A DNA stretch of 64,000 bases from an archaeon GW2011_AR15 (GTDB taxonomy: Archaea; Nanobdellota; Nanobdellia; Woesearchaeales; GW2011-AR15), in NCBI GenBank assembly GCA_000830295.1, contig CP010425.1:288001-352000 (forward strand). Reading direction: 5' to 3'. Made by a program: the position numbers and the translations under genes. Under the pieces are notes generated by a model, which searched no databases, was not told the origin of the DNA, and was given only the letters and a program-made list of their open reading frames with translations. Of the stretch, positions 43,291 to 54,732 are shown in pieces; the first letter of the stretch is position 1, and every line of letters begins with the position of its first letter.

Positions 43291-43361
43291 GGGGCTGTAG
43301 TTTAACGGGAAAATTCTTGGCTCCAGACCAAAAGATTCAGGTTCGACTCCTGATAGCCCCA
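43291..43361 (+). tRNA. tRNA-Trp(CCA), intronless, CCA end not encoded
   Basis: Acceptor GGGGCTG/TAGCCCC, D arm GTTT/AAAT, anticodon arm CTTGG-CTCCAGA-CCAAA, T arm TCAGG-TTCGACT-CCTGA, discriminator A. Confidence 0.92.
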
Positions 43362-52325: not shown

Positions 52326-53540
52326 TTAAAAGTCTTCAACAGTCATCAGATTGACCTTTGTGCTCCTGCCCTTTACTTTGTTGTCCATTCCTATAAGGAA
52401 GTCAACTCTTGCTTTTTCTGCTGCTTCAAGAAGGTCCTTTTCTATTGCTCCGTCAAATATCACTGCATGGACGCCTGTATTGAGGGATTTCAGCGTTGTG
52501 TTCAGCTCTGAAATCGGGACTTTTCCGAGGATATTGAGCTTGCTGTCCAGCACATATGCCCCTCTTGTCCCTACAAGGTCTTCAAGCATCTCACTGAAGG
52601 TATCTTTCTCTGCCGTTGTTATTTTTGAATGAGTCTCTTTCTCTTCCGGCTTTGGCATCTGCCTGCCCTGCACCGGCTTTGGCCTTTCAATGGCCCTCCT
52701 TGGAGCTGATGCTGATTCCATCTTCATCTGCTCTGCAGATACCTTGCTCCTAAGGGCCTTATGTATCTCCTTCTTTGTCAGTTCCTCAACTTCCTTTCCG
52801 TCAGGGGCTCTTGCCACAAAATCAACCTCTGTAACGCTCATAAGCTCCTGCACTATGAGGTTTCCTCCCCTGTCTCCGTCAACAAAAGCTGTAAGCACCT
52901 TTGATTTCCCAAGCTCTATAATCTCAGGAGGGACTGATGTGCCGTTAAGCGCTATGACATTCTTGAATCCGTGCTTAAGAAGTGTCAGGACATCCGCCCT
53001 TCCTTCCACAACAACGACTTCCTCTGACTCATCGACTGACGGGCCAGCTGGCAGCCTGCCGCGGCCATACTCCTGTATTTCCATAACTCTTACAGAATAG
53101 GCCACTTCATCGCTCAGCTCCTGGGAATCAGGCATGGTCTCTTCCATCATCTGCCTTAGCAGGGTCTTGGCCCTGTCAATGACATGGTTTCTCTTTGATA
53201 TCCTTATGTCTTCTATCTTGCTGACTTCAATCTTGGCAGTGCAGGGGCCTATCCTCTGGATGACTTCCAAAGCAGCGCCGACTATTGCTGTCTCTGCCTT
53301 GTCAAGGCTTGAAGGTATCAGTATTGAGCCTACTGTCTTCCCTGATTTTGTCTCTGTGTCTACCTCTATCCTTCCTATCCTGCCTGATCTCTGAAGCTCT
53401 CTCAGTTCAAGCTCACTTCCGAGAAGCCCTTCTGTCTGGCCGAAGACAGCGCCTATTACGTCCGGCCTGTCTACAACGCCGTCTATGTTTATGCCTGCGT
53501 GAATGATATATTTAGCTGATACTGGGCTTATTTTTCCCAT
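52326..53540 (-). CDS. dnaG: Archaeal DnaG (TOPRIM primase-like, exosome-associated)
   Basis: DVIGAVFGQTEGLLG, VEGRADV, DGDRGG, EVEEL. Confidence 0.96.
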   Translation of the reverse strand: MGKISPVSAKYIIHAGINIDGVVDRPDVIGAVFGQTEGLLGSELELRELQRSGRIGRIEVDTETKSGKTVGSILIPSSLDKAETAIVGAALEVIQRIGPCTAKIEVSKIEDIRISKRNHVIDRAKTLLRQMMEETMPDSQELSDEVAYSVRVMEIQEYGRGRLPAGPSVDESEEVVVVEGRADVLTLLKHGFKNVIALNGTSVPPEIIELGKSKVLTAFVDGDRGGNLIVQELMSVTEVDFVARAPDGKEVEELTKKEIHKALRSKVSAEQMKMESASAPRRAIERPKPVQGRQMPKPEEKETHSKITTAEKDTFSEMLEDLVGTRGAYVLDSKLNILGKVPISELNTTLKSLNTGVHAVIFDGAIEKDLLEAAEKARVDFLIGMDNKVKGRSTKVNLMTVEDF

Positions 53541-53554
53541 TGTTATCTCCTCCT

Positions 53555-53635
53555 CTAAAGCCCGGCATAAGAAATATCGGTTATATCAGGTTCTTCAAAA
53601 ATCTCCTGCAATCTGCTGAATGAAATGATGAACAT
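53555..53635 (-). CDS. Putative 26-aa uORF upstream of dnaG
   Basis: AAGGAG SD then MFIISFSRLQEIFEEPDITDISYAGL*; stop abuts the dnaG SD (AGGAGG). Confidence 0.45.
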   Translation of the reverse strand: MFIISFSRLQEIFEEPDITDISYAGL

Positions 53636-53677
53636 GATTGTTTCTCCTTATGCCTTGGCCATTGTAATGATTTGTTT

Positions 53678-53920
53678 AATAAGAACAAGCAATGTCTGCT
53701 TTACCCTAACTTACTTATGTGATGAATGTGATGAGTGTGAGCTTACTTGTCCTTATTCGTTGAGCGTAATAAAATATTGTCGCCCGAGACACTAACTCCC
53801 AGGTTCATAGCTTGTCTTTGACGTATGCTTCCCCGGGTACTCTCGTGACGGGCTGTATTACGCAAGAGTGTCTCAAACTCATTGAGTTCCCTACAAGGGA
53901 ATCTCATAAGAGGACCCATT
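53678..53920 (-). ncRNA. Candidate structured, pseudoknotted RNA upstream of dnaG
   Basis: Several long helices (see findings); G-U pairs favour the minus strand; TTTATAAA promoter at ~53952-53959. Confidence 0.65.
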
Positions 53921-54024
53921 TGTGTAATTAGGAAAAGGGATATAAAAAGGCTTTATAAAGGTTTGTGTCATAATATAAAAAATTGCAAAATTTTTAAATA
54001 TCCTATGATGTTCTTTCATCTGAA

Positions 54025-54732
54025 ATGAGTTTAATAGAGAATGTTCCAAGGCACCTTGGGATAATCATGGACGGGAACAGGAGATTTGCCAGAAGGCTGA
54101 CTGCAAAGCCCTGGAAAGGCCATGAATGGGGCGCAAAAAAACTTGCGTCTGTGCTTGAATGGTGCAGGGAATACGACATAAAAGAACTTACAGTCTATAC
54201 TTTTTCTATCCAGAACTTCAACAGGCCGAAAGAGGAGTTTGACTTCCTCATGGCTATTTTTGACAGGAATTTCGAGGAGCTGAAGAAAGACAAGAGGATA
54301 TACGAGAAGAGGATAAGGATAAATGTCATAGGAAGGCTCTGGATGTTCCCTGAAAGCATACAGAAACGAATGAAAGAGATAATGGAGCTAACAAAAGAGC
54401 ATGACCAGTATATTATAAATTTCGCAATGGCCTACGGCGGCAGGGAAGAGGTCATTGACGCTGCCATGAAGATAGCCAGGAAAGCTGTTTCAGGCGAGAT
54501 TAAGGTGGATGACATAAACGAGGAAGTTTTCAAAAACAGCCTTTACATCAAATCAGAGCCCGACCTGATAATAAGGACCGGCGGGGAAAAGAGAAGCTCT
54601 AATTTCCTTGCATTCCAGAGCGCTTATTCCGAGTATATTTTCATAGAAAAGATGTGGCCTGAGTTTGAGAAAGAGGATTTCGTGGCCTGTCTTGAGGAAT
54701 ATTCACAGAGAAAAAGGAGATTTGGGGTTTAG
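54025..54732 (+). CDS. uppS: cis-prenyltransferase (UppS family)
   Basis: IMDGNRR, FSIQNFNR, YGGREE, RTGGEKRSSNFL. Confidence 0.96.
   Translation: MSLIENVPRHLGIIMDGNRRFARRLTAKPWKGHEWGAKKLASVLEWCREYDIKELTVYTFSIQNFNRPKEEFDFLMAIFDRNFEELKKDKRIYEKRIRINVIGRLWMFPESIQKRMKEIMELTKEHDQYIINFAMAYGGREEVIDAAMKIARKAVSGEIKVDDINEEVFKNSLYIKSEPDLIIRTGGEKRSSNFLAFQSAYSEYIFIEKMWPEFEKEDFVACLEEYSQRKRRFGV

Follow-up and report, generated by a model that had tools for sequence, protein, structure and literature searches.

The closest described relative of the RNA reported here is found in Nanoarchaeum equitans, which possesses a single 159-nt H/ACA box sRNA. As presented in the published description (Randau, 2012; Genome Biol 13:R63), this sRNA is composed of two hairpins, each containing a kink-turn, with only an ACA between them. 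Additional file 2 of the same report places it at 339411–339574 with 10,900 reads, in the context NEQ389<-sRNA->NEQ392a, and RNAsnoop predictions given there for its stem 2 name U614 of the 23S rRNA and U796 of the 16S rRNA. More generally, the published rules for archaeal H/ACA RNAs describe a lower stem of 7–9 bp, 8–11 layers between pocket and G-A pairs, a guide strand of 5–8 nt on the 3′ side and an ACA box located 14–16 nt from the pocket-closing pair; degenerate boxes (NCA, CCA) are described for the H/ACA as well as H/ACA-like RNAs of Pyrobaculum.

A further archaeal example is sR-h45 of Haloferax volcanii, the 3′ stem-loop of which makes pseudouridines 1940 and 1942 of the 23S rRNA (Majumder et al., 2020). 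That paper reports guiding in vivo as well as in vitro, with a UNUN motif of the target left unpaired and with the ACA box required; such UNUN guiding tolerates, and indeed needs, a box at about the distance found in the present work. According to the same source, the two equivalent helix 69 pseudouridines are guided by snR191 in yeast and by U19 in humans. These eukaryotic RNAs use two separate hairpins, one per uridine, together with eukaryotic partners and without an L7Ae kink-turn, and are functional analogues only.

Here we describe an RNA of this type in the window (the whole 64-kb stretch analysed, positions 288001–352000 of a 1.16-Mb single-contig genome). With good confidence, we assign positions 53778–53921 on the minus strand to an archaeal H/ACA box guide sRNA, the 3′ hairpin pocket of which is most likely aimed at helix 69 of the 23S rRNA. 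This is a known kind of RNA and a new member of a family that has one published example and is absent from Rfam 15; within the literature searched, no mention of it turned up for Woesearchaeota, for DPANN or for the region in front of dnaG.

A conserved two-hairpin RNA between uppS and dnaG

The RNA is located in the intergenic gap between dnaG (52326–53540, minus strand; NCBIfam NF003108 'DNA primase DnaG', 481 bits, with Toprim domains) and the divergently oriented uppS, specifying undecaprenyl-diphosphate synthase (54025–54732, plus strand). This gap extends from 53541 to 54024, and its measured length of 484 nt is in agreement with the ∼480 nt given in an initial annotation of the stretch made from the letters alone. 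Archaeal DnaG is both a Toprim primase and an exosome-associated protein. Using positions 53600–53960 as a blastn query, we identified a sharply conserved core at approximately 53769–53881, present with 72–91 % identity in 19 of 19 same-family genomes and in most genomes of the order. Upon alignment of 20 loci, a TATA-like box was seen to be followed by ∼144 nt of conserved RNA and then by sequence of greater variability. The box, which lies at 53951–53960 on the minus strand and had already been pointed out in the initial annotation, is conserved with the same spacing in these family-level relatives; in a crude search of 99 relatives' loci, 59 additionally had a TATA-like word placed 25–48 nt upstream of where the model match starts. 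We predict that it serves as a promoter for the sRNA, and probably for a transcript comprising both the sRNA and dnaG.

With respect to known RNA families, the only Rfam 15 match in the window at gathering thresholds was a tRNA (43291–43361), and no family matched at the locus itself. When E-values of up to 10 were admitted for positions 53450–54100, only sub-threshold noise was returned, with no known ribozyme or riboswitch model among it. The best Rfam H/ACA score at the locus, obtained for HgcG, was 8.5 bits (E-value 6.8) against a threshold of 77 bits, and is therefore not evidence. The initial annotation had seen no signatures of RNase P or SRP RNA, and both of these RNAs indeed score above threshold elsewhere in the genome.

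The extent of the sRNA, 144 nt with predicted ends at 53778 and 53921, is that of the covariance-model match, and all of its elements are read from the minus strand. Its 5′ hairpin (53866–53917) begins with a basal stem (53910–53917 with 53866–53874) in which seven of seven pairs are doubly changed among relatives. This is followed by kink-turn 1, comprising G-A at 53904–53905 and, on the other side, a three-base bulge at 53881–53883 and then G-A at 53879–53880; the stem adjoining it switches between A-U and C-G from clade to clade. Above the kink-turn is a variable apical stem, which corresponds to a hairpin marked in the initial annotation. The 5′ hairpin is paired throughout and we could not recognize a pocket within it. 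A 12-nt hinge (53854–53865) connects the two hairpins and ends in an ACA at 53854–53856; its final three columns contain A in 46, C in 45 and A in 61 of 72 relatives.

The 3′ hairpin (53782–53853) has a lower stem of 6 + 3 bp (53848–53853 with 53782–53787, and 53845–53847 with 53790–53792) that is interrupted by a 2-nt bulge, and both of its parts covary. The pocket strands, 53838–53844 and 53793–53797, create an internal loop of 7 × 5 nt, beyond which is an upper stem of 5 bp (53833–53837 with 53798–53802). This stem had also been recognized in the initial annotation, and it covaries, with both sides changing in three of the five pairs. It leads to kink-turn 2 (53827–53832 and 53804–53811), for which the consensus of G-A/A-G pairs and a three-base bulge was found in 88 of 88 sequences, and to a tip hairpin at 53814–53822. 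One base past the lower stem lies the 3′ ACA box (53778–53780), which in relatives is mostly ACA or AUA, with some copies having CCA, UCA or GCA. Together with its tail, the 3′ hairpin represents a universal core of 77 nt; this core alone is universal, since the other orders within the class either lack the 5′ hairpin or have something else in its place.

Statistical support for the structure was obtained from two sets of relatives. Model R1, built on an alignment of 19 copies, gives the window RNA 159 bits as the sole match in its own genome. Across 72 relatives, 94.3 % of cells were paired in an alignment that was itself fitted to R1 (slid controls give 23–45 %), 22 of the 31 pairs were doubly changed, and none of 500 shuffles was as high. 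For the 3′ half, an independent MAFFT alignment of 88 distinct sequences yielded 94.8 % paired cells and 15 of 22 doubly changed pairs, again with 0/500 shuffles as high. Furthermore, G-U pairs are present in 84 of the 88 sequences; these would become A-C if read on the other strand, which places the RNA on the minus strand, the dnaG strand favoured from the outset.

The overall architecture first suggested for the region nevertheless requires revision. The initial annotation described a pseudoknotted RNA of ∼245 nt, and whilst a conserved structured RNA does exist, it is in fact the 144-nt sRNA plus a separate stem further downstream. The two crossing 8-bp helices from which the pseudoknot had been drawn can be formed in this sequence, but they are not conserved and the RNA is not pseudoknotted. 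One of these (53786–53793/53867–53874) is paired in 81.1 % of cases in 72 relatives versus 81.8 % in shuffles, 446 of 500 shuffles being as high, with a single double change, and it competes with two covarying helices. For the other (53764–53771/53856–53863), duplex energies average −2.1 kcal/mol over 69 relatives, versus −2.31 kcal/mol with shuffled partners. Three of the four helix sets originally proposed are correct, as are the strand and the promoter.

The identity of the RNA follows from its match to the published sRNA. The N. equitans genome (G070) was not used in building models R1 and R2, both of which match it at C1:339430–339566 (R1: 48.4 bits, E-value 1.8e-9, full length; R2: 61.8 bits, E-value 9e-12). 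A class-I Tyr/Trp tRNA synthetase gene flanks this match on one side and a 160-codon ORF on the other. Its sequence is that printed for the H/ACA sRNA in the N. equitans report, with the neighbouring genes agreeing as well. Accordingly, the window RNA falls into one family with an H/ACA sRNA already detected by RNA-seq; the new cis-regulatory element, ribozyme or DnaG-partner RNA offered in the initial annotation gives way to an H/ACA guide with a published, expressed relative. Both RNAs have the same two-hairpin build with a kink-turn in each hairpin, both carry ACA at their 3′ end as well as in the hinge, and the pocket strands of their 3′ hairpins are almost identical. The 5′ hairpin of N. 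equitans has a different sequence from the pocketless one described here. In addition, the N. equitans gene is a free-standing one with a T-run terminator, its neighbours being a tRNA synthetase gene and a hypothetical gene, whereas in the window and in most relatives no terminator separates the RNA from the dnaG leader that comes next.

With 9 bp in its lower stem, nine layers to the second G-A pair and 5 nt in its 3′ guide strand, the 3′ hairpin conforms to the published archaeal rules; it shares its stem–pocket–stem build, stem lengths and kink-turn with the Pyrobaculum H/ACA RNAs, as relatives do their degenerate boxes. The ACA lies 17 nt from the pocket-closing pair, compared with 14–16 nt in published RNAs; looping out the 2-nt bulge would bring this down to 15 nt, and in relatives lacking this lower-stem bulge the distance is 15 nt. 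Candidate partner proteins are specified in the genome, namely L7Ae (102.8 bits), Nop10 (61.1 bits) and a TruB/Cbf5-type synthase (TruB_N, 90.2 bits). A search of the genome for Gar1 with Pfam PF04410 returned no match; among four control archaea, one was likewise missed by this model.

Wherever the RNA was found, there was exactly one match per genome. In a sample of the phylum taken mostly from the window's own order, the covariance models detected it in 141 of 151 genomes (113 of 116 from the same order and 27 of 34 from other orders). A class-level sample gave 44/151 genomes with R1 and 43/151 with R2, comprising all 18 same-order genomes and, from other orders, 25 or 24 of 132; both figures describe samples, in which relatives are not independent of one another. 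Genomes with no model match mostly have other helix 69 stem sequences, so that part of this apparent absence may reflect blindness of the models to other guides.

Complementarity of the 3′ pocket to helix 69

In a search of the genome's own rRNAs in which the arms were confined to the pocket strands, only Watson–Crick pairs were counted and 2–4 target bases were left unpaired, three sites were returned. The best two of these three are at LSU 1947/1948, within helix 69 (1915/1917 in E. coli numbering). Here, the pocket forms 5 + 6 bp (11 in total), or 4 + 6 bp (10 in total) when U-A-U-A is left unpaired, and only 2 of 300 shuffled pockets produced sites as good. Helix 69 also ranked first of eight candidates in a looser search that allowed a few unpaired guide bases, with a score that was not above chance (43 of 100 shuffles as good). 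A canonical search of the rRNAs, with two unpaired bases and arms running from the upper stem, gave at best 7 bp, a result equalled by 82 of 100 shuffles; over the whole genome, the same search produced matches outside RNA genes only. With both the canonical and the looser searches at chance level, the helix 69 assignment draws on the atypical UNUN arrangement, on the test confined to the pocket and on the way guide and target covary. For the 5′ hairpin, the best rRNA match was reached by 36 of 100 shuffles.

This covariation was tallied by eye for the class genomes that have a 23S gene, 21 of which have both a guide and a helix 69 sequence. In 20 of these 21 genomes the guide matches its own helix 69 strand, across three sequence variants. 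Where the 3′ strand of helix 69 is as in the present genome, the matching 5′ pocket strand was found in 11 of 12 cases (the exception being genome G145). Where one base of the target is changed, the complementary change has taken place in the guide in seven of seven genomes, two of which extend the pairing to 7–8 bp, and where two bases are changed both complementary guide changes are present (2/2). Additionally, in a genome missed by the models (G069) we saw by eye a look-alike RNA with two kink-turns upstream of dnaG, and its pocket matches that genome's own two-base variant of helix 69. The invariant loop nucleotides are thereby accounted for by pairing with 23S helix 69, and not by a DnaG-partner or cis-acting role of the kind raised in the initial annotation.

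The targets predicted in the N. equitans work, U614 of 23S and U796 of 16S, are different from the helix 69 site proposed here. A nearer parallel is the 3′ stem-loop of sR-h45, which, as described (Majumder et al., 2020), likewise combines a kink-turn hairpin with an ACA box and leaves UNUN unpaired in the same conserved 23S loop. The H. volcanii RNA differs in having a long spacer between its hairpins and a 5′ hairpin that guides a third site, 2605; we did not find an equivalent of this site for the window RNA. As for the numbering, we take LSU 1947/1949 to be the counterparts of H. volcanii 1940/1942, an equation made from general features of helix 69 together with the matching unpaired motif and position, rather than from an alignment.

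From these observations a mode of action can be proposed. L7Ae would sit on the kink-turns, and Cbf5 together with Nop10 on the lower stem and the ACA box, whilst the pocket of the 3′ hairpin would pair with helix 69, in its loop and along its 3′ strand. Specifically, the 3′ pocket strand would pair with the four bases before U-A-U-A and the 5′ pocket strand with the six bases after it. The UNUN motif would then be left unpaired, enabling Cbf5 to turn one or both of its uridines into pseudouridine, as with sR-h45. Judged from complementarity and its covariation, guiding of pseudouridylation in the helix 69 loop is most likely the function of the 3′ hairpin.

The dnaG leader and probable co-transcription

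The association of the RNA with dnaG is close but not absolute. Among dnaG-relative loci searched with R1, it is upstream of dnaG and on the same strand in 72 of 80, at a distance of 124–541 nt (median 230); the corresponding figure for class-level loci is 28 of 29, the one exception being the N. equitans copy. A run of at least five T within 40 nt after the RNA was seen in only 6 of 101 copies, compared with 13.7 % of random windows. Moreover, the next conserved leader element begins 7–42 nt past the RNA, a spacing that, for at least 18 of 60 cases, is too tight to fit a second promoter. With its own TATA box and no terminator, the sRNA is probably co-transcribed with the dnaG leader and dnaG. 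The suggestion in the initial annotation that the RNA heads the dnaG transcript thus holds up as a probable one, supported by the promoter, the common strand, synteny and the scarcity of terminators. We propose that the sRNA promoter probably also drives the leader and dnaG, with the guide RNA then being trimmed out of the common transcript.

The element that follows is a leader stem on the minus strand (53678–53757), which is part of the dnaG 5′ leader and separate from the sRNA. It corresponds to the long stem pairing 53678–53692 with 53743–53757 in the initial annotation, and, as was claimed, it folds on the minus strand alone (MFE −18.2 kcal/mol), the plus strand being without this fold. 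Its arms are long, conserved in sequence and arranged around U-C-A-Y repeats; a word search located both arms in the leaders of 71 of 99 relatives. An inner extension of this stem is 53 % paired, versus 42 % in shuffles (0/500 as high). UCAY words show a strand-specific excess in 72 leaders, numbering 407 where 122 ± 10 would be expected, while their reverse complements occur only 79 times. Other orders have the 3′ arm of the leader stem directly ahead of the dnaG ribosome-binding site. Elsewhere in the genome, we inspected two exact matches to stem words and the densest UCAY cluster, and all three were within coding sequence.

A putative upstream ORF of 26 codons (53555–53635, minus strand) is a further possible element of the leader in Woesearchaeales. 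Its Shine–Dalgarno region (53641–53654) can pair with the ORF's own 3′ end (53564–53576). A pattern search picks up an ORF of at least 12 codons in 36 of 72 leaders, and many of these have a GGAG-like word 5–8 nt upstream and start with M-F-I. A GGGCU word near the dnaG start, considered as a partner for the lower stem, occurs in just 12 of the 72 leaders. RNase PH genes are present in 150 of 151 class genomes and hence do not track the presence of the RNA.

Comparable arrangements of kink-turns and mRNAs exist in archaea. In the available part of the work on archaeal 5′ UTR kink-turns (Daume, 2017), as here, a consensus kink-turn is positioned at the 5′ end of a transcript, which in our case probably contains an mRNA. 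In contrast to the window RNA, those elements are simple kink-turn hairpins without a guide pocket or ACA box, and that portion reports no link to dnaG. The stand-alone, terminated copy of N. equitans indicates that the core function of the RNA is independent of dnaG. It is conceivable, though rather doubtful, that the guide RNP acts in cis as well. Under such a scheme L7Ae, Cbf5 and Nop10, together with the UCAY stem and the Woesearchaeales upstream ORF, would set the level of DnaG, and conversely the exosome would trim the 3′ end of the guide RNA out of the mRNA of its own subunit. If true, a factor of RNA decay and replication would be tied to the status of ribosome biogenesis.

Alternative explanations and biological meaning

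A number of other interpretations were weighed against that of a helix 69-directed guide. The region might function mainly as a cis-acting, protein-binding 5′ leader of dnaG, with L7Ae on the kink-turns, or DnaG itself, controlling translation or stability. This would fit with the position upstream of dnaG on the same strand (72/80 and 28/29 loci), with the T run following the RNA in only 6/101 loci and with the next leader element being just 7–42 nt downstream; control of 5′ UTRs by L7Ae and kink-turns is moreover documented as feedback on the l7ae and nop5–fibrillarin mRNAs. We nevertheless regard it as unlikely. The N. equitans member is not beside dnaG, has a T run after it and accumulates as an abundant sRNA in its own right, and the invariant bases of the loop follow the helix 69 sequence of each genome, which a protein-binding leader would not need to do. 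Furthermore, the paper on L7Ae RIP-seq never uses the words dnaG, exosome or primase in its main text, and we saw no conserved pairing of the RNA with the dnaG ribosome-binding site. That the molecule is an H/ACA-type RNA but has a different target, or is an orphan that scaffolds an RNP, appears quite improbable. The canonical two-base search yielded no significant site, and the published predictions for stem 2 of N. equitans are 23S U614 and 16S U796. Against this, helix 69 is the best site under pocket-restricted pairing (2/300 shuffles as good), the guide changes in step with it in 20/21 genomes, and the geometry fits the tested archaeal case of sR-h45.

A metabolite-sensing riboswitch or self-cleaving ribozyme in the dnaG leader is very improbable. 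In its favour, the internal loop has many invariant bases, a kink-turn could aid a compact fold, and the lack of an Rfam match is compatible with a new class. Yet the invariant loop bases are explained by rRNA pairing, there is no conserved alternative pairing with the ribosome-binding site, the pseudoknot fails, and no known model scores even with E-values of up to 10. We give next to no credence to a protein-coding explanation in the form of a 58-codon ORF at 53743–53919 (minus strand). This frame is open in the present genome, but in 18 family-level relatives the same ATG opens anywhere from 6 to 51 codons, in two frames, and substitutions obey base pairing. Two rRNA-like candidates were also discarded. 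A permuted 5S rRNA had been considered on account of two 5S-like words, and a normal 5S gene scores above threshold elsewhere in the genome; a mimic of 16S helix 44 consisted of two colinear short matches that we judged to be chance. The base after the word shared with helix 44 varies and covaries within the RNA, and R1 has no match to rRNA loci (the best hit, 10 bits with an E-value of 0.6, lies elsewhere).

Taken as a helix 69-directed H/ACA guide, the RNA has several implications. Rfam 15 contains no DPANN H/ACA guide RNAs, so that routine annotation misses them, and the target proposed in 2012 for the N. equitans RNA is here revised to helix 69. The near-constant presence of a terminator-less guide gene upstream of dnaG, together with conserved leader elements, presents an unexplained but tractable question of archaeal co-transcription and processing. 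Both of the helix 69 uridines concerned are pseudouridylated in organisms from bacteria to humans. A single H/ACA RNA seems to be retained in these very small genomes, with a conserved hairpin aimed at the two uridines, and this apparent retention supports the importance of the modifications.

Features of the dnaG leader

Between the guide RNA, an H/ACA box small RNA, and dnaG (window 52326-53540, minus strand) we observed a long leader stem on the minus strand (window 53678-53757), the arms of which are conserved in sequence and which is found at the equivalent place in loci L024-L135 of relatives. U-C-A-Y words are clustered inside this stem in a strand-specific manner, with 407 observed across 72 leaders vs 122 expected. 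Such YCAY clusters bring to mind the binding sites of KH domains. In other orders, the 3' arm of the stem adjoins the dnaG ribosome-binding site.

Nearer to dnaG, on the same strand, we found a possible upstream ORF of 26 codons within window 53555-53654, beginning M-F-I and preceded by a GGAG-type ribosome-binding word; in the minimum free energy fold its 3' end can pair with the region of this word as an 11-bp stem. Comparable ORFs of 12-37 codons are present in 36 of the 72 relatives' leaders, and past the first residues these are little conserved. Additionally, in a lineage that does not carry the guide RNA (L167, G062:C20:10661-14803), a 116-codon open frame lies directly 5' of dnaG and, judged by eye, looks like a small Toprim-domain protein.

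Other RNA genes and the exosome

The sole Rfam match at the gathering threshold in the whole window was a tRNA gene (43291-43361, plus strand, 59.6 bits). Two short colinear identities were also seen between the guide RNA (window 53848-53855 and 53798-53809) and the base of helix 44 in the organism's own 16S rRNA (1341-1348 and 1392-1403). As no model match was obtained and a neighbouring base covaries inside the RNA, we judged this likeness to be due to chance.

Elsewhere in the GW2011_AR15 genome, two neighbouring genes encode RNase PH-domain proteins of the exosome ring (G000:C1:1119622-1120772). RNase PH-domain genes were present in 150 of the 151 sampled genomes of the class, and DnaG is therefore probably exosome-associated in this organism as well.

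Variation and breadth of the guide RNA family

In some family members (L109, L110, L120, L126, L152 and others) the apical hairpin above kink-turn 2, that of the 3' hairpin, carries insertions of 30-60 nt; matches in members with such tip insertions reach 100-123 nt, compared with the 77 positions of the model. Upstream of dnaG in genome G069 (L165, G069:C1:53922-58136) lies a divergent RNA, recognised by eye, that has two kink-turns and is laid out like the guide RNA. Neither covariance model, R1 or R2, matched this RNA, and its pocket matches the helix 69 variant of G069 itself; thus, the guide RNA family is wider than the counts from the models suggest.
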